A stretch of DNA of 64,000 nucleotides from Dictyostelium discoideum (GCA_000004695.1 CM000150.2:4544001-4608000), one strand, 5' to 3'. Positions 908-18,487 are shown, counted from the stretch's first letter. Notes: generated by a model from the letters alone, not told the origin. Made by a program: numbers and translations.

Positions 908-3900
908 ATGGATGTAGAACAAGAACCAAAAATTGATGATGCTTTATATAGCAGACAACTTTATGCATTATCTCATGAAACAATGAAAAAAATTACATCA
1001 ACTTCAGTTTTAGTTGTAGGTTTACAAGGTCTTGGTATTGAAATTGTTAAAGATTTAAGTTTAGCAGGTGTTAAATCTGTTACATTGTATGATAAAGAAT
1101 TAGTTGAAATTAAAGATTTGTCTTCTCAAGTAAGTTTTATATTTATTATTTTTACTTTCACGCACAAAATTTTTTTTTTTTTACTATGGTGATGTTCATT
1201 TAAAAAAAAAAAAAAAAAAAAAAAAAATTTTTTTTTTTAAAAATTTGGAAAAAAAATAGAAAAATAATAATAGTAATTAATTAATTTCCCTCTTTATTTC
1301 TTTTTATTTTTATTTTAAATTTTTAGTTTTATTTTTCACCAGAACAAGTTGGTAAAGTTGGTAGAGCAGATGCATGTTTCCAAAAAGTTGTAGATTTAAA
1401 TAATTATGTTAGAATTGATGTACATAATGGAGAATTAAGTGATGAATTCTTAAAGAAATTCAATGTTGTAGTATTAGCCAATCAACCATTAGCATTACAA
1501 CTCAAAGTGAATGAATTTTGTCATGCAAATAAAATTCATTTCATTAGTGTTGAAACCAGAGGTGTTTTTGGTCAATTATTCAATGATTTTGGTGAACAAT
1601 TTACAATCACCGATACAAATGGTGAGAATCCAAATGCTTATATGATCAGTTCAATCAGTCAAGATAAAGAAGGTATTGTAACCGTTGTTGAAGAACAAAA
1701 ATTACAACTTTTAGATGGTGATCTTGTTACATTCAAAGAAGTCAATGGTATGTCAGCTCTTAATGATCTTCCACCACAAAAAATTAAAACCATCTCTCCA
1801 TTAACTTTTTCAATTGGTGATACTACAAATCTTCCACCATATACTTCTGGTGGTTATGTTACTGAAGTTAAACAACCAAAAGTTGTTGATTTTGTAAGTT
1901 TTTTTATTTATTTTATGATATATAGATAGATAAATATAAATATATATATATATATATATATTAATTTTTTATTTATTTTTATTTTTTTTAAAAAAGAAAC
2001 CATTAAAAAATATTTTAGAAAGTGGTGAAAATATTTTTATTACAGATGATTTTAAATTTACACAACCAACCAATTTATTAGCAGGTTTCCAAGCAATTCA
2101 TAAATTTGCAGAGAAAAATAAACATATGCCAAGACCACATAATAAGGAAGATGCAAACGCTGTAATTGAGATTGCCAAAGGATTATTAAAGAAACCAGAT
2201 GATGAACTTGATGAAAAGATGATCACTCAATTATCATTTGGAGCACAAGGTGATATTGTACCAATGCAAGCAATTCTTGGTGGTATTACAGCTCAAGAGG
2301 TTTTGAAAGCATGTTCAGGTAAATTCACACCAATTCACCAATTGGCATTCTTTGATAGTGTCGAATGTTTACCAGAGGATTTAGAAACTCTCCCAGAAGA
2401 GGAGTTTCAACCAATTGGTTCACGTTACGATGGTCAAATCATTACCTTTGGTAAGACACTTCAAAATAAAATTGAAAATTTGAATTACTTTTTAGTTGGT
2501 GCCGGTGCTATCGGTTGTGAAATGTTAAAGAATTTCGCAATGATGGGTTTAGGTGCTGGTCCAAAGGGTTTGGTACATGTCACCGATATGGATACAATTG
2601 AAAAATCAAATCTCAATCGTCAATTCCTTTTCCGTTCATCCGATATTCAACAATTGAAATCTCAAACCGCTGCAAACGCTGTCAGAGTTATGAATCCAGA
2701 TCTCAATGTAAAGGCATACAGTCTTCGTGTTGGACCAGATACTGAAAGTCATTACAATGAAGAGTTTTTCAATTCATTGGATGGTGTTTGTAATGCATTG
2801 GATAATGTTGAAGCACGTTTATATATGGATTCTCAATGTGTTTACTATGGTAAACCATTATTAGAATCTGGTACATTGGGTACCAAAGGTAACACTCAAG
2901 TCGTTGTACCACATCTCACCGAATCCTATAGTTCAAGTCGTGATCCACCAGAGAAAGGCATTCCAGTTTGTACCCTTCACAATTTCCCAAATGCCATTGA
3001 ACATACCATTCAATGGGCTCGTGATACTTTTGAAGGTCTCTTTAAGAACAATGCAGACAATGTAAACTCTTACTTAACCAATCCAGCTTACGTTCAATCA
3101 TTGAAAACTCAAAATCCATTTGTTCGTTTAGAAACTCTTGCCTCAATTAAAGCTTCACTTATGGATCGTCCATTGGATTTCAATCAATGTATCGCTTGGG
3201 CTCGTCTAAAATTCGAAGAATACTTTAACAACAATATCGAACAATTACTTTACAATTTCCCAAAGGATATGGTCACCACAACTGGTACACCATTTTGGAG
3301 TGGTCCAAAACGTGCTCCAACCCCATTGAAATTCGATGTTGAAAATCCATTACATTTGGAATTCATTGTTGCCGCTGCAAATTTACGTGCCTTCAATTAT
3401 GGTATCAAAGCTGAAACAAACATTGAAGTCATCCAAAAACAAGCTGCCAATGTTATTGTTCCAGATTTCACTCCAAAGAAGGTTAAGATTCAAACCTCTG
3501 AAAATGAACCAGCTCCATCTTCAAACACTCAACAAGCTGGTGGTGATGCTGAAGATGATCAATGTGATACCATTTTATCACAACTTCCACAACCAAGTGA
3601 AATGGCTGGTTACAAAATTAACTCTATTCAATTTGAAAAGGATGATGATACCAATCATCATATCGATTTCATTACCGCTACCTCAAATTTAAGAGCTACC
3701 AACTATGCAATCAGTCCAGCTGATAAACATAAGACCAAAGGTATCGCCGGTAAAATCATTCCAGCTTTAGTTACCACTACTGCCGTAGTTGCTGGTTTCG
3801 TTTGTATCGAATTGATTAAAGTTATTCAAAATAAAGCTTTGGAGAAATATAAGAGCACCTTTATGAATTTAGGTATCCCATTCTTTGGTTTCGTTGAACC

Positions 3901-4249
3901 AATTGCCGCCCCAAAGAACAAAATTCGTGAAGGCTGGACTTGGACACTTTGGGATCGTTTCGATGTTGATGGTGATATCACTCTCAAGGAGTTTTTAGAT
4001 CTCTTTGAAAAGAAACATGGTTTGGATATTTCAATGCTCTCTTGTAAAGTTACACTTTTATATGCTCTCTTCACTGATAAGAAAACTAAAGAGGAAAGAT
4101 TAAAGATGAAAATCTCACAACTCTATGAAACCCTCTCAAAGAAACCATTACCAAAAGATAAGAAATATTTATTACTTGAAATTTGTTGCAATGATACTGA
4201 AACTGGTGATGATGTTGATGTACCAAGTGTCCGTTATAAGTATAATTAA
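908..4249 (+). CDS. uba1: Ubiquitin-activating enzyme E1. Exons 908..1129, 1327..1893, 1997..4249; introns 1130..1326 and 1894..1996. A possible additional micro-exon 769..774 (ATG TCT) lies upstream.
   Basis: Translation gives MDVEQEPKIDDALYSRQLYAL... then SSQ|FYFSPEQVGK... then KVVDF|KPLKNILESGENIF...; the long third exon carries the ThiF/E1 adenylation and catalytic-Cys regions typical of E1. The first intron starts with GTAAGT and both end in AG, each phase 0. The stop TAA is at 4247-4249. The possible micro-exon is atgtct followed by gtaagt at 775, with a TACTAAC branch site at 866-872 and an AG at 900-901 in frame with 908. Confidence 0.9.
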
Positions 4250-4486
4250 AAAAAAAAAAAAAAAAAAAAAGATTTATTCTTTATCTATACACATACAAAT
4301 ATTTTATTTTATAATAAAAAAAAAAAAAATTTTAAAAAAAAAACATATATATATTTATAGTTTTATTATTAACTTTTTCATAATTTTAAATCAAACACAT
4401 TTCAATTGGATTAATAAATAAATTTAATTATATTTATAAATTTGTAATTTCTTTGTTTTTTTAATTTTTTTTGTTGGTTGTGTAGA

Positions 4487-4487
<1 letters not shown>

Positions 4488-4569
<82 letters not shown>
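4488..4569. repeat. (ATT)n microsatellite, about 27 units
   Basis: Perfect attattatt... run. It produces a spurious poly-Ile ORF on the minus strand (4411..4596). Confidence 0.95.
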
Positions 4570-4570
<1 letters not shown>

Positions 4571-5655
4571 TCCAAACCTATTTTTAAATTATTCAATCAC
4601 ATCATAGTATACTTTTAAATACGAATTATTGAAAAAGAGCATGGAATTTCATAATTTTCCAATTTTAATTTTGGATATTGATTAGTTATTTTATTAAATA
4701 ATCCAATATAATATTTTAATAAATTTAAATTTTTTAAGTGAAACGAAATTAAATATTTTTTATTACATAATAATTGAGGAAATTCTTAACAAAGGAAATC
4801 CAACATTTCAATTGACCTTGATATTAATAATGGGAAATGATATGAGCGGTTAATTGTAGTGGGAATATTTTTAAAATAATCATTATTATCATTTCCATTT
4901 TCACCTTTTAATTTATTAATAAAATGTTTAAATAATTTAACACTATCGAAACCAACTAAACAAAAAAATAAAAACCAAATATTTAATTTCTTATTTTTAT
5001 TAATTTCTTTATTTTTAATCCCATCAATTGCTAAATCAATAAAATTAATTTGTTTTTTTAAATCATTTTTACAATTTGAAAATAATTAATGATTTTTAAT
5101 TTCTGTTTTATTTTTAGAATCTTCATACATAATGGTATGAAGATTCTAAAAATGGTTTATAAGATATATTATATCTGATTTATTTGTTGATAGCATTGTT
5201 AATTTTAAAAAAAGATCTTTATTTAATGAAATAAAGTATCCCAAATTTCATAGGTTTTCACAGTTGGTTCTATTAATTTAATTAATTGTTCAATTACTTG
5301 TATTGAATCACTTTCAATTGCTTTATTTAAAAATCTTTGGTTAAATATTCATGCTTGTAAAAAAGAAAAGTAATAATGGAAAAAAATAAGAATAAAGACC
5401 AATGTTCAATTTGTAAATATTAATAAACTTTTTTTTATTTTTATTTTTTTTTTAAATATATAATTTTATTTTATTTTTTTATTTTATTTTTTAAAAAAAA
5501 AAAAATATTTAAAGAAAAATAAATAAAAAAATATAAAAATTAATTTAAACTTTACTAAAATATGGAAAATTCGATTAGAATCGAATTATAAAATAATATA
5601 TTTAAAAAATACAATTATAAACCGAAAAAAGATAGGTTTTAGTGAGGGCACTTTT

Positions 5656-7608
5656 TTTTTTTTTTTTTTTTTTAATATTGGATTAACAAGATTGATATAT
5701 GTCCATCTGTGTTAATACGAGTTTTATTTAATATTTATTTAAAGGCTTATCATTTAAGCTGAAGGGTTATTTTAATCATATGAATTGATCAAAAGATATA
5801 ATATTTGGGAGAGATGATTCTGTAATACAATAGTAATTAGCTGTTGTTTTTCTTAGCTTGATCGTTGAAGTGAGAAGGATCTTAGGATCTTTGAAGTTAT
5901 TATGGTCTTTTGCTGATAAGTTTTTCAGATCTTTTGCTTTTTTGATGTATTCTAGAGTGGCCAATTTGTGCCATTTCTTTAGAAGGGAGCTGTATGATAG
6001 TGATTCATCTGTTAAAGGATCTTCACTGTATATTTGATTGCAAATCCAAATCCAAATGTTGTGGAGGATAAGGGCCATTAGGTTTCTATATGCGAATGAT
6101 CTGGTTAGATCATAGTCTATTGCTTTATAGTTCCATTCAAAGTATTCTTTGTGGAATCTGTGGTTGGCGTAATCTGCATTCACTTCTTGATCTTTTTTGG
6201 CTGTCGGTGATAATTTTGGAGTTATTCTATTAATGAAATTGTTATTTTGCCTAATTCTTGTATGGTGCCAGTTTTTACCTTTGCCTGTGGTAATATAGAT
6301 GAAATTTTTGAGTTTATTTATTTTTATGAATTGTTTTGTTTTCTTGCATGAGAAGAACAGGTGACCGTATGGGTCTTTGCTCATATCTTCTTTGCAGAGT
6401 GGGCATTGTTTGTTGTGAAGGTAGTTTATTGGAAGGCATCTGGCATGGAATCTAAACATTGTGTCTCTTGTTTTAGGGTCTTTTATCTTCAGTATGTTGT
6501 TGAAGAGTTGATTATAGCTGTAGCCTCTTAAGTTTAGAGATGATTGGAATTCCGTTTTAGGGATGGTTGGATTTTGGTCTTGAATTGTGGTATACCATTC
6601 TGCCAGTGAAAGTGGTTGTCCATTTTCGTTTTTTATGGATGTGAGATTATTGTTGAAGATTGCTTTTTTTATTCTTATTTTGTTCCATTCGTCTAAGTTT
6701 TCTTTTAGGTATCTGGATGTGAATTTGTTTTTTTGGATCTGATATTCCCAGCTTTTGTGATGAGATGAGTTTGTTTGTTTGGTTTCTAGTGCTAGGATGA
6801 ACTGGTTTATGATCCAAAGTTTCTGCGCCAGTTGTCTCAATTCTATATTCCAAATGTTCCAGCCCCCTACTTTTAGTGGGTATCTTGCTCTTTTGGTTCT
6901 CATTAAATTAATAACTTGAAATCCACTAGCATTTTTGTTGTTTGGTGCCGATAAAAACCATTCGACTAATTTATTGATTTGGTTTAATTCCTCTTCATTA
7001 AAATTCTCTACATATGAATAGTAGGTTAATTTAGAGAGTGCGAATGCTTTGAGGATGTTGGTTTTGGTTTTGATTGTTGAGTCAGTGGTTTTCCATAGTA
7101 CTAAGGATGATCTTATTGTGTTTAATATTTCTGGCATTTTTCTTGTTATCCCTTTGCCTGTGAAGAAGTATCCCAAGTATCTTTCTGGATTTGTAGATAT
7201 TGGAATTCTTTGGTTGGTATTGTCTGGGTTGCCTATAAGAATTGATGAAGATTTGTCGATGTTTAGTTTTGAGGAAGTGGCTTTGCAAAATGAATTGAAG
7301 TGTTGTAGTACTAATTCAAGTTGTTGAGAGTCTGGGACCATTGAAGCCGAGTCGTCTGCAAAGCTTTGGAATTTCTCTCTGTGGTTGCTGTTGTTTAGAG
7401 GAAGGCCAGTAATTAGGTCATCTTGTAAAATTTTTCTAGCTAAAGCCTCTATTACAAGGACGAACAGGGTGGGTGATAGTGGATCTCCTTGTTTAACTCC
7501 TCTTTTGATCTCAAAGGGTATAGTAGTTCTACCATTAATTTCAATTCTTGCATCAGATTTGGTGAGTAGATTCATTATCAGGTTGATTATATTGGTTGGA
7601 ATGTTGTC
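5656..7608 (-). mobile_element. 5'-truncated non-LTR (TRE-type, tRNA-gene-targeted) retrotransposon copy, about 1.95 kb, flanked by a 17-bp target-site duplication
   Basis: The minus-strand ORF 5776..7575 (599 aa) has reverse-transcriptase motifs (GVKQGDPLSPTLF ... SFADDSA) and a C-terminal Cys/His motif (CPLCKEDMSKDPYGHLFFSC) typical of a non-LTR ORF2. The element ends in a poly(A) tract (T-run 5656-5673 on the + strand). The direct repeat ttagtgagggcactttt occurs at 5639-5655 and 7609-7625. The insertion site is about 90-105 bp from the 3' end of the tRNA-Ile gene at 7714. Confidence 0.8.
5776..7575 (-). CDS. Retrotransposon ORF2 fragment (reverse transcriptase plus C-terminal zinc-finger-like domain), N-terminally truncated
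   Basis: RT motifs and a CCHC-like C-terminus. No endonuclease domain upstream, because the element is 5'-truncated at 7608. Confidence 0.8.
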   Translation of the reverse strand: MNLLTKSDARIEINGRTTIPFEIKRGVKQGDPLSPTLFVLVIEALARKILQDDLITGLPLNNSNHREKFQSFADDSASMVPDSQQLELVLQHFNSFCKATSSKLNIDKSSSILIGNPDNTNQRIPISTNPERYLGYFFTGKGITRKMPEILNTIRSSLVLWKTTDSTIKTKTNILKAFALSKLTYYSYVENFNEEELNQINKLVEWFLSAPNNKNASGFQVINLMRTKRARYPLKVGGWNIWNIELRQLAQKLWIINQFILALETKQTNSSHHKSWEYQIQKNKFTSRYLKENLDEWNKIRIKKAIFNNNLTSIKNENGQPLSLAEWYTTIQDQNPTIPKTEFQSSLNLRGYSYNQLFNNILKIKDPKTRDTMFRFHARCLPINYLHNKQCPLCKEDMSKDPYGHLFFSCKKTKQFIKINKLKNFIYITTGKGKNWHHTRIRQNNNFINRITPKLSPTAKKDQEVNADYANHRFHKEYFEWNYKAIDYDLTRSFAYRNLMALILHNIWIWICNQIYSEDPLTDESLSYSSLLKKWHKLATLEYIKKAKDLKNLSAKDHNNFKDPKILLTSTIKLRKTTANYYCITESSLPNIISFDQFI

Positions 7609-7678: not shown

Positions 7679-7713
7679 TTAATCTAGTTTTCAAATGCCT
7701 TAAAAAGGATCTG

Positions 7714-7786
7714 TGCTCGATGCAGGGATCGAACCTGCGACCGTGGCGTTATTAGCACCACGCTCTGCCGACTGAGCTAATCGAGC
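7714..7786 (-). tRNA. tRNA-Ile (anticodon AAT/AAU), 73 nt, no encoded CCA
   Basis: The reverse complement GCTCGATTAGCTCAGTCGGCAGAGCGTGGTGCTAATAACGCCACGGTCGCAGGTTCGATCCCTGCATCGAGCA folds as a cloverleaf. It has a 7-bp acceptor stem GCTCGAT/ATCGAGC, a D arm GCTC/GAGC, an anticodon stem TGGTG/CGCCA with loop CTAATAA, and a T arm GCAGG-TTCGATC-CCTGC. Confidence 0.9.
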
Positions 7787-7799
7787 ATCCGTGAAAAAA

Positions 7800-8460
7800 A
7801 AAATTAAAATTGGCCAAAAAATGGGTAATTTTTTTAGGGGAAGATGAGACTTCAGAACATATATTCTTCAACTGCAAAGCCCACATCAAAAACACACAAG
7901 AAATCTTCAACTACACCTTAACCAAGTGTGGACACACCACTCACACCTGGAATTTTAAGATTTTAAAACATCCACAAATTGCACTAATAGCCAATTTAAT
8001 AGCTATTATATTCGAAAAAATCTGGCACAAAAGAAACAAACTCATCCACGATGAAATAGAAATAATAATTCATAGACCAAAAGTCATACGTGAACTAATT
8101 AAAACACAAAGAGCTGCATGGGAGAGGACACAAGCGGTTATAAACAAAACATTAAGAATCAAATCAAAGCAACGGCAAGAAGAACAAAATAAATTAGACT
8201 CATTAATCTCGCTAAAGCTATTACAATTTAGCAGACAACGGAACTCACATCTTCACGCAATAGCACTTCCCAAACATCAATCATGAAGCTGATGATAAAA
8301 TAAAAAAAGATTTAGAAAAAAATTTGGACAAAAAAGATGTTTTAATCAAAAGTAATAATACAATTCGAAATTCGAAACAAAAAAAAAAAAAAAAAATAAA
8401 GTAAACTGACCCCTCTTTTAGAGACCCTGTAAAAAAAAAAAAAAAAAAAACTAAAAATAA
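7800..8460 (+). mobile_element. Severely 5'-truncated remnant of a second TRE-like non-LTR retrotransposon (ORF2 C-terminal region plus A-rich tails), head-to-head with the tRNA-Ile gene
   Basis: ORF 7810..8286 (no genuine start) encodes ...EHIFFNCKAHIKNTQEIF...IAIIFEKIWHKRNKLIH.... This parallels the C-terminal HLFFSCKKTKQF...ALILHNIWIWICNQIY domain of the 5776..7575 ORF2. Oligo(A) tracts follow at 8385-8400 and 8437-8460. It begins within about 20-50 bp of the tRNA 5' end. The family assignment is inferred. Confidence 0.45.
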
Positions 8461-8832: not shown

Positions 8833-9025
8833 CTATTCTTTATGAATGGTCAATAACTTTGCTCTTTCCCATTCAGTATCTCTTGTATTGGATAGTTTAT
8901 AGATTTCTAAATCCTAAGTGATAAACTTTTCCCCTATACTTTATTTTACTTTTCATATTGTGTATGATATAAATGATTTATAATTCCTATTTTTAAAAAA
9001 AAAAAAAATTAAAAAAATTATATAT

Positions 9026-9064
<39 letters not shown>

Positions 9065-9078
9065 TTTTCTATAAATAG

Positions 9079-9462
9079 CTAGATACTTACATTACCATCA
9101 ATATCGTTAGAAGCATAACAGCTACTACTCCAATGAGAACCACGACCACATCTAAAACAACAATTACTTTCGTTGTAACTTGATTTATGGACTTGTTCAT
9201 GAATATTTTTTTTGAGTACAACTAAATTACTATATCTATTATCAGATGTATCTTTATTAATATGGTGGACCACTTCATTAGCGTATAACTCTCTGCCAAC
9301 TTTTCTTTGACCAACTGTACGATGAGTAAATTTCCAACTTTTACTATTTTCATCATAGTATTTACGATAACCACTTGGATTAATATAAATTTTTAAATCT
9401 CTTGGTCGTTGTTGTTGTTTTTGTCTTTGCTCTTTTTTATTGTTGTAATTGTTTTTTAACAT
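9079..9462 (-). CDS. Small intronless ORF (127 aa) with an HNH_3-like endonuclease motif followed by a CCHC zinc knuckle
   Basis: The segment ...GYRKYYDENSKSWKFTHRTVGQRKVGRELYANEVVHHINKDTSDNRYSNLVVLKKNIHEQVH has the His-His...Asn...Asn-Leu...His...His spacing of phage-type HNH nucleases. It is followed by CFRCGRGSHWSSSC, a CX2CX4HX4C zinc knuckle. Confidence 0.55.
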   Translation of the reverse strand: MLKNNYNNKKEQRQKQQQRPRDLKIYINPSGYRKYYDENSKSWKFTHRTVGQRKVGRELYANEVVHHINKDTSDNRYSNLVVLKKNIHEQVHKSSYNESNCCFRCGRGSHWSSSCYASNDIDGNVSI

Positions 9463-10018
9463 ATTGTTGTAAAATTATTTTTTTTTTTTTTAAGATTTTA
9501 TTTTTTAATGAACGAATTTTTTGGTGTTTGTTGAATATTTATATAAATGAATAAAATTTTTTTTTTTTTTGATTTTATTTATTTTTTTTTTTTTTGATTT
9601 TATTTATTTTTTTTTTTTTAAAAAAGAATTTATTTTTATTTTATTTGAATTATACCTTTTTTAAGAATTTTAACAGAATTTTTGTTTTTTTATTTAAAAT
9701 GGCCAAAAATATTATTTCTATTTAATTTTTTTTTTTCTTGGAATATATTTTTAAAAAAAGAATTGATCTGTCTAAATCTAAAAGGATTGAGTTCCAAAAA
9801 ATAAAAACTTGATTTATATATAAAAAAAGAATCACATAATCAAAAATAAAATATATTGATTTAAAAGAATAACCAAAATAAAATTTAAAATTTTTAAGAA
9901 AAACTTTGTCTTTTTTTTTTTTTTTTTTTTAATATTATTTATTTATTTTTTAATATATACAAAATTCTTTTTTTTGTTTTTTTTTTTTTTTTATTATTAT
10001 TATTACTTAATCTTTTTT

Positions 10019-12699
<2,681 letters not shown>

Positions 12700-18381: not shown

Positions 18382-18414
18382 TTAATATCGTTTCCTTTAA
18401 TTAAAAAGGATGTG

Positions 18415-18487
18415 TGCTCGATGCAGGGATCGAACCTGCGACCGTGGCGTTATTAGCACCACGCTCTGCCGACTGAGCTAATCGAGC
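18415..18487 (-). tRNA. tRNA-Ile (AAT), second copy
   Basis: Identical over its 73 nt to the gene at 7714..7786. The immediate 5' flank (atccgt.gaaaaaaaaatta) and the ex-B-containing 3' flank are also conserved. Confidence 0.9.

Follow-up and report, generated by a model that had tools for sequence, protein, structure and literature searches.

Near one end of a 64,000-nucleotide stretch of the Dictyostelium discoideum genome (GCA_000004695.1, CM000150.2:4544001-4608000; hereafter the window) lies a small gene, DDB_G0270276, that joins an HNH_3-type nuclease domain to a CCHC zinc knuckle, with a filamin gene upstream and a tRNA-Ile gene downstream. A first-pass annotation had noticed this combination in a 127-amino-acid open reading frame (ORF) and proposed that it was either a domesticated or horizontally acquired nuclease, or a gag-like/nuclease fragment of an undescribed mobile element. 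The ORF is indeed there, on the minus strand at 9079..9462 and with the sequence quoted at the time, and it corresponds to exon 1 of DDB_G0270276 plus a read-through into the intron. We find that DDB_G0270276 is a real, expressed nuclear gene of D. discoideum that is under purifying selection. We favour, with fair but far from complete confidence, the reading that it encodes a horizontally spread, host-fixed and predicted metal-dependent DNA nickase or nuclease, whose knuckle would serve as a nucleic-acid anchor.

Gene structure, domains and predicted active site

The protein of strain AX4 (XP_646668.1, UniProt Q55C13) is 126 amino acids long; databases already list it as a hypothetical protein whose domains are labelled automatically, under the title 'HNH nuclease domain-containing protein'. 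It consists of ORF residues 1-124 followed by Glu-Leu, and thus ends in ...DGNEL. The closing Val-Ser-Ile-stop of the ORF takes it 12 nucleotides into the intron; as its last three codons are intronic, the ORF as delimited is not the exact protein, and inclusion of the second exon restores the C-terminal Leu of the family-wide 'GxxL' motif (Table 1). This 9-nucleotide exon and its acceptor context are kept in AX4, strain FIR (locus tag ACTFIR) and D. cf. discoideum, and the gene models annotated in the latter two span roughly 493 nucleotides for 126-128 amino acids. An alternative 150-amino-acid model from strain FIT (P0005, locus tag ACTFIT) is less likely, as its downstream acceptor (near window position 8916) and frame are not conserved in strain FIR. 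In D. firmibasis, the annotated 171-amino-acid model (P0004; 10001..10582 of its locus) reads through a likely donor, GGAAAT/GTAGGT (slash, splice junction), and a splice to ...TTAG/AAATTGTAA would yield the family-typical end ...DGNKL. When a collection of 5.8 billion proteins was searched, the AX4 protein was found within a 90%-identity cluster and its close relatives came from Dictyostelium only.

Table 1. Features of the HNH-knuckle gene and its surroundings, in window coordinates.
Feature	Position	Strand	Basis and remarks
Exon 1	9091..9462	-	Codons 1-124 (Met to Asn124); translation equals residues 1-124 of the AX4 protein (P0006); GTAAGT donor adjoins
Spliceosomal intron, 104 nucleotides, AT-rich	8987..9090	-	GTAAGT...ATAG, right after codon 124 (AAT)
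Exon 2, 9 nucleotides	8978..8986	-	GAA TTA TAA (Glu-Leu-stop); translation, AX4 C-terminus and family consensus end 'TDxxGxxL'
Basic, N/K/Q-rich, low-complexity N-terminus, residues 1-19	9406..9462	-	pLDDT < 50 for residues 1-18; indels and substitutions concentrated here
HNH_3 (I-HmuI-like beta-beta-alpha-metal) nuclease domain, residues 25-93	9184..9390	-	Pfam match to residues 44-89; putative active site H66, H67, N75, N79 and H88, plus H92
Extended CCHC zinc knuckle, residues 99-124	9091..9168	-	zf-CCHC_5; C102-X2-C105-X4-H110-X4-C115, then conserved YAxxDxxG tail
tRNA-Ile(AAU) gene	7713..7786	-	ARAGORN; downstream context, not part of the HNH gene
Second tRNA-Ile(AAU) gene	18414..18487		About 10.6 kb from the first
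Retroelement ORF with RVT_1	5776..7575		Domain search
ORF2-tail-like retroelement ORF	7810..8286		Window ORF
Filamin/ABP-120-type gene	10019..12418	-	Window ORF, domain search
Ubiquitin-activating E1 gene	2126..4249	+	Window ORF, domain search

Both domains pass the curated thresholds of Pfam. HNH_3 (PF13392) matches over profile positions 1-45 of 46 with E = 2.9e-13 and 49.7 bits against a cut-off of 24.8, and zf-CCHC_5 (PF14787) with E = 2.6e-7 and 30.7 bits against a cut-off of 27. The HNH_3-type motif and the CX2CX4HX4C knuckle right after it, both claimed in the first-pass annotation, therefore withstand the profile search it had proposed, and one outcome that it had named as fatal to its own reading, a lack of any significant HNH family match, did not arise. 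The protein also matches 14 PHROG families, 11 of them annotated as HNH endonucleases (best E = 2.2e-13), and a search of it against NCBIfam gave no match.

The best PDB sequence matches of the knuckle are the distal knuckles of betaretroviral nucleocapsids, those of Mason-Pfizer monkey virus (1cl4) and mouse mammary tumour virus (1dsv). They share with it the CX2CX4HX4C pattern and a likeness that continues past the last Cys ('C.RC.RG.HW...C.S..D..GN'); unlike them, the Dictyostelium knuckle is single, appended to a nuclease without any Gag context, and also present in bacteria. The term 'retroviral-type' used in the first pass holds for the pattern only; bacteria of the Myxococcota carry this fusion of an HNH domain with a knuckle too.

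An AlphaFold2 model built on a 20-sequence family alignment has a mean predicted local distance difference test (pLDDT) score of 82.3, with block means of 88-95 for residues 21-90 and 76-87 for the C-terminal knuckle part, and predicts the N-terminal 18 residues to be disordered. It shows a beta-beta-alpha-metal fold with a preceding beta-hairpin region as in I-HmuI, the intron-encoded HNH nicking homing endonuclease of Bacillus phage SPO1 (PDB 1u3e), which belongs to 'Group 2' of the His-Me finger nucleases (PMC5714182). In a fold comparison, I-HmuI is the closest structure, with I-PpoI, McrA, the Gme and GVE2 HNH nickases, the HNH domains of Cas9 and IscB, and ZRANB3 as lower matches; Foldseek likewise places 1u3e first. 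Only fold comparison reached I-HmuI; sequence-only PDB searches with the whole protein, the family profile or the HNH part alone did not. The good matches among predicted viral structures all belong to HNH or homing endonucleases of tailed phages and cover the nuclease part only.

Across 31 diverse members of the family, Y32, H66, H67, N75, N79, L80, H88, C102, C105, G106, H110 and C115 are invariant. A profile alignment to I-HmuI pairs H66 with D74, H67 with H75, N75 with N83, N79 with N87 and H88 with N96; the numbering of the I-HmuI sequence used reproduces the published D74/H75/N87/N96 positions, and the main support for the residue mapping comes from the structural match and from conservation within the family. 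In the I-HmuI mechanism, as reportedly described by Shen et al. in 2004, H75 serves as general base, and the metal is bound by D74 and N96. With invariant residues at these positions, the family keeps a complete predicted active site, in which His-His replaces the Asp-Asn metal ligands. The two proteins thus belong to the same Pfam family and have family-invariant residues on D74, H75, N87 and N96, whereas their sequence identity is only 21%, the metal-ligand positions are His/His (H66, H88) in one and Asp/Asn in the other, and the Dictyostelium protein lacks the C-terminal helical/helix-turn-helix (HTH) DNA-binding extension of I-HmuI, in whose place it has the 25-residue CCHC knuckle. They also differ in setting, I-HmuI being encoded in a phage intron and the Dictyostelium protein by a nuclear, intron-containing and syntenic gene.

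Conservation, expression and neighbourhood

In each of the five D. discoideum-clade genomes examined, the gene occupies the same intergenic place, with filamin on one side and tRNA-Ile on the other. In the four genomes besides that of the window (strain FIR, D. cf. discoideum, D. citrinum and D. firmibasis), it lies directly downstream of filamin in the same orientation, with a tRNA-Ile(AAU) gene downstream at all four orthologous loci, so that the order filamin - HNH - tRNA-Ile is kept throughout. A tblastn search detected the HNH-knuckle gene once in the window and once at each orthologous locus, and searches returned one protein cluster per genome. Within the window and the orthologous loci, the gene shows no sign of belonging to a mobile element (a multi-copy sequence with reverse transcriptase, protease or integrase ORFs, or terminal repeats), and within the D. 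discoideum clade the gene does not behave as a homing endonuclease gene would, that is, lying in an intron or intein or adjacent to a target, and scattered sporadically among close relatives.

Nei-Gojobori estimates over exon 1 for ten pairs give a ratio of nonsynonymous to synonymous substitution rates (dN/dS) of 0.12-0.53, with dS up to 0.95, compared to 0.03-0.07 for the filamin neighbour; depending on the pair, dN of the HNH gene is 8 to 25 times that of filamin. A dN/dS below 1 together with a dN far above that of filamin indicates a gene that is constrained yet fast-evolving. In the Dictyostelium comparison, changes are concentrated in the N-terminus and at a few surface positions, and the catalytic and knuckle residues are invariant. 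Between AX4 and strain FIR (window 9091..9462 against 10001..10372), 13 nonsynonymous and 5 synonymous sites fall in 124 codons, roughly 10% protein divergence, whereas filamin of the same pair has 6 nonsynonymous substitutions in about 850 codons and a dN/dS of 0.06. Relaxed constraint or conflict-driven evolution could account for the divergence of the HNH gene, and the filamin dS of 0.05 suggests that the AX4 and FIR 'strains' are quite divergent lineages.

DDB_G0270276 is transcribed, regulated and strongly enriched in cup cells, and its transcripts are present in published RNA-seq data, where the first-pass annotation had proposed to look for them. In supplementary file 2 of PMC6198379, it reaches 113, 232 and 227 transcripts per million (TPM) in purified cup cells; the values for stalk are 24, 17 and 23, those for spores 6, 8 and 4, and those for vegetative cells 7.5 and 7.2, which makes its level about 25-fold higher in cup than in vegetative cells. 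In the tables of PMC4403905, taken without their column headers, its read counts start near 20 and climb to several hundred in the later columns; it is not listed in the supplements of PMC7078664. Expression is highest late in development and in cup cells, and the cup-cell enrichment suggests a late, somatic function. Many ORFs of the DIRS-1 retrotransposon likewise have their top values in cup cells (3,500-5,600 TPM compared to about 80, for instance; PMC6198379 supplementary file 2), and the common pattern may be coincidental late expression or may hint at a link to retroelement activity.

The window is extremely AT-rich, with 13-20% GC in non-coding and 35-44% GC in coding sequence. Its tRNA-Ile gene downstream of the HNH gene is flanked on opposite sides by the two retroelement fragments listed in Table 1 (5776..7575 and 7810..8286). 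Dictyostelium TRE elements insert beside tRNA genes, and tRNA-Ile is likely the target that attracted these fragments. In the expression table of PMC6198379, a 'TRE5-A ORF2' entry (DDB_G0270274_RTE) stands, in identifier order, between uae1 and DDB_G0270276. The first-pass annotation had described the ORF as sitting next to two retroelement insertions; the remnants are real, as the RVT_1 domain in one of them shows, but their relevance to the HNH gene finds no support, as they are unrelated to it and separate insertions beside tRNA-Ile. The orthologous loci likewise carry two tRNA-Ile genes, at varying positions and in varying orientations.

Relatives in amoebae and Myxococcota

To our knowledge, HNH_3 (I-HmuI-type) nucleases are almost entirely known as endonucleases of phages and bacteria, either homing or free-standing. 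Searched exhaustively with HMMER, 1.84 billion representatives yielded 13,491 matches at E <= 1e-3, most of them plain HNH_3 proteins or multi-knuckle proteins; among the 150 matches listed, about 40 extend over both domains, in proteins of 100-220 amino acids. Named amoebozoan members of the two-domain family include, besides DICPUDRAFT_39985 of D. purpureum, proteins of Arcella intermedia (from a transcriptome) and Synstelium polycarpum; heterolobosean members come from Naegleria gruberi (XP_002676298.1) and Willaertia magna, and the named bacterial members from Hyalangium gracile and a Myxococcales metagenome-assembled genome (MAG). Some relatives (Arcella, Naegleria, P0012 and P0013) have a second knuckle. 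The compact HNH-knuckle family, with proteins of about 100-220 amino acids, is common to Myxococcota and to soil amoebae of two unrelated supergroups, Amoebozoa and Heterolobosea.

We also scanned one genome per species for 185,579 bacterial and archaeal species, using a narrow bacterial alignment as the query. Matches that span the knuckle came only from Corallococcus carmarthensis, Myxococcus xanthus, Archangium gephyra, several Myxococcaceae, Myxococcales and Myxococcota MAGs, and one record labelled 'Comamonas'; in all other taxa of the scan, the match covered the HNH part alone. The 12-kb locus of this 'Comamonas sp. KCTC 72670' (BNCN01000011.1) is collinear with that of M. xanthus AM003, with 85-96% protein identity for most ORFs and 67% GC. 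This collinearity makes it effectively a Myxococcus locus, and the record is probably mislabelled or from a contaminated assembly.

In IMG/VR, the sole true two-domain match is Corallococcus carmarthensis NODE_22, a whole 74-kb bacterial contig listed as viral. The viral contigs L006, L007, L018, L022, L220 and L242, whose matches seemed to reach across the knuckle, were considered as further members and rejected, as their tail is of the form CxxC...CxxC instead. Phage free-standing HNH_3 endonucleases of this kind (L007, L018 and L022) resemble the family in their small size, their 'VHHINGDKxDNRxxNL' core and a Cys-rich segment after the nuclease helix, but this segment is a four-Cys, ribbon-like tail that lacks the 'HWxxxCYAxxDxxG' extension. 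The extended knuckle itself ('CFRCGRxGHWAxDCFA...G') is found in metagenomic proteins (P0174, P0175 and P0170) on GIY-YIG nucleases, in one to three copies, or in tandem arrays elsewhere. The GIY-YIG proteins P0174 and P0175 are, like the HNH family, minimal homing-type nucleases with one to three 'CFRCGRxGHWAxDCFA' knuckles, and differ from it in their catalytic fold, which is GIY-YIG and not His-Me. From such sequences, the extended knuckle looks like a portable nucleic-acid-binding module that has repeatedly been joined to small homing-type nuclease domains.

The bacterial members are stand-alone genes in prophage, defence-island or mobile-island contexts, and their occurrence looks sporadic. 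The Hyalangium locus has a second HNH gene and a CBASS operon nearby; another has an MmeI-type restriction-modification system, an integrase and transposases, and a further one PLD-SNF2 helicase, HATPase_c_3, CHAT and AAA_5 genes. On Corallococcus carmarthensis NODE_22, the HNH-knuckle gene (6001..6288) lies about 1.5 kb downstream of a phage tape-measure gene (1,247 amino acids, PhageMin_Tail and Tape_meas_lam_C), a proximity from which at least one myxobacterial copy is taken to be prophage-borne. An all-against-all comparison of 13 bacterial loci found no recurrent partner gene except between near-identical genome pairs. The AX4 protein has no match among the defence models of PADLOC-DB 2.0, where the bacterial members match only ZorE models, over some 25 residues of the core motif and with E values no better than 6e-6.

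In a neighbour-joining tree rooted on phage HNH_3 proteins without a knuckle, all named eukaryotic members fall into one crown group nested among paraphyletic Myxococcota sequences; this group also takes in eukaryote-looking metagenomic sequences with acidic or Ser-rich tails. Its traits are 'HHINK[DN]K', where bacteria have 'HHI[ND]G[DN]K', and an insertion of three or four residues in the linker before the knuckle. In D. purpureum (GL871256.1, 7220..7627), the gene lies between two PfkB-domain gene models and not beside filamin, and its intron follows W43; the C-terminal intron that D. discoideum has after N124 is absent. These differences imply that, within the group-4 dictyostelids, the gene was relocated and introns were gained or lost independently.

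In the literature searched, we found no description of this family, of its amoeba-myxobacterium distribution or of an architecture with a knuckle in place of NUMOD modules, no mention of DDB_G0270276 in the main text of any paper, and no paper that joins an HNH endonuclease with a CCHC zinc knuckle. The classification of His-Me finger nucleases uses 'zinc knuckle' only for the treble-clef element (PMC5714182).

Predicted activity, alternative readings and significance

The protein consists of a predicted disordered, basic N-terminus, an I-HmuI-type nuclease domain and one C-terminal extended CCHC knuckle. In the reading we favour, it would hydrolyse phosphodiester bonds with the help of a divalent metal and thereby nick or cut DNA. 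H67 would be the general base, as the equivalent of I-HmuI H75; H66 and H88 would occupy the metal-ligand positions (I-HmuI D74 and N96), and N75 and N79 would brace the beta-hairpin. The knuckle would stand in for the NUMOD, HTH or AP2 DNA-binding modules that are the typical architecture of HNH_3 homing enzymes (PMC5714182). In that role it would tether the enzyme to nucleic acid, probably at exposed bases or at single-stranded or structured regions, with a specificity that may be short or structural rather than directed at a long recognition site, and it may also stabilise the very small His-Me core. A nuclear-targeting role of the basic N-terminus is possible. As for history, horizontal transfer from bacteria to amoebae would have been followed by fixation as a host gene; in Dictyostelium, the signs of such fixation would be intron gain, a locus that is stable across the D. 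discoideum clade, and developmentally regulated expression. The proposal of a domesticated or horizontally acquired nuclease, made in the first pass, fits this evidence.

Several observations weigh against this reading or parts of it. The deep nodes of the neighbour-joining tree have less than 60% bootstrap support and the outgroup is distant, so that transfer from bacteria to amoebae is favoured as the direction but not established. The different locus and intron of the D. purpureum gene indicate that its history in group-4 Dictyostelium was not purely vertical at one locus. At the sequence level, the I-HmuI alignment has weak statistics (hhalign probability 16%, E = 0.0016), and the knuckle, instead of binding nucleic acid, might chiefly hold zinc for the structural support of a very small His-Me finger. 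At position 72, AX4 has Thr where at least 90% of family members have Lys (P0007 has Ile and P0001 Lys); together with the AX4-FIR dN/dS of 0.53, which comes from only 18 substitutions, the change K72T at this conserved site makes some relaxed constraint possible in the D. discoideum lineage.

A gene with these relatives might still be selfish, that is, a free-standing, homing-endonuclease-like gene kept by occasional mobility without any host function. Its nearest structural relative is a homing endonuclease, its viral fold matches are all phage HNH or homing endonucleases, and its bacterial members sit in prophages and mobile islands without a fixed partner; the patchy eukaryotic distribution, the relocated D. 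purpureum copy with its different intron position and the fast protein evolution, at 8 to 25 times the dN of filamin, all point the same way. Yet such a gene would hardly be expected to keep its locus in every D. discoideum-clade genome examined, to be present once in the window and as one protein cluster per genome in the searches, with dN/dS below 1 and a regulated, cell-type-enriched expression; Pfam also finds none of the long-site modules (NUMOD, IENR1/HTH, AP2) that are typical of HNH_3 homing enzymes (PMC5714182). We therefore regard persistence as a selfish gene as rather unlikely, and give marginally less weight to a catalytically inert nucleic-acid binder, such as a transcription or RNA regulator built on the His-Me finger scaffold, for which the SMAD MH1 and NFI DNA-binding domains are precedents. 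The K72T change would be in line with such a protein, as would the knuckle, CCHC knuckles being typical of RNA- or single-stranded-DNA-binding regulators, but the I-HmuI catalytic and metal positions are invariant in the 31 bacterial and eukaryotic members, AX4 included, and full invariance of catalytic positions is not expected of a protein that serves as a scaffold only.

The two remaining explanations are both very improbable. A gag-like/nuclease fragment of an undescribed (retro)transposon, tied to the neighbouring insertions, was the other proposal of the first-pass annotation, and the retroviral nucleocapsid matches of the knuckle and the presence of retroelement ORFs within about 700-1,400 bp speak for it. 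The retroelement pieces, however, lie on either side of a tRNA-Ile gene, and this tRNA gene accompanies the HNH gene in four other genomes as well; the HNH gene occurs once in the window, is syntenic and normally expressed, has its own start, stop and spliceosomal intron, and has an identical architecture in Myxococcota with no reverse transcriptase or protease nearby, evidence that contradicts this proposal. That the ORF arose by chance, or is a decaying and functionless pseudogene, might be suspected from its shortness in a very AT-rich genome and from the relatively high dN/dS in the closest comparison, but is at odds with two significant Pfam matches, with a frame and active site kept across species at dS up to 0.95, and with robust expression.

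The finding overturns no established views. It does place an HNH_3 core and a CCHC knuckle, in a unit of roughly 100 amino acids, in a conserved, expressed and developmentally regulated gene of a model eukaryote, and it illustrates that 'retroviral-type' knuckles fused to a nuclease are no evidence of a retroelement. As knock-outs, cup-cell markers and population genomes are available for D. discoideum, the host-fixed nuclease that we favour would be a tractable case of how a selfish or defence-type bacterial nuclease turns into a host gene, and the family is a candidate source of very small programmable or structure-specific nickases. More speculatively, and at present with the odds clearly against it, an HNH-knuckle mini-nuclease may have crossed between Myxococcota and phagotrophic soil amoebae and been co-opted in group-4 Dictyostelium for the terminal differentiation of somatic cup cells, where its possible roles would be programmed DNA or RNA degradation or processing, or the restraint of retroelements. 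If so, its fast protein evolution would reflect genetic conflict, and the gene would show a phage-type HNH_3 nuclease put to a new purpose in a eukaryote, as well as being a clear-cut example of transfer across domains, from one lineage of social soil microbes to another.

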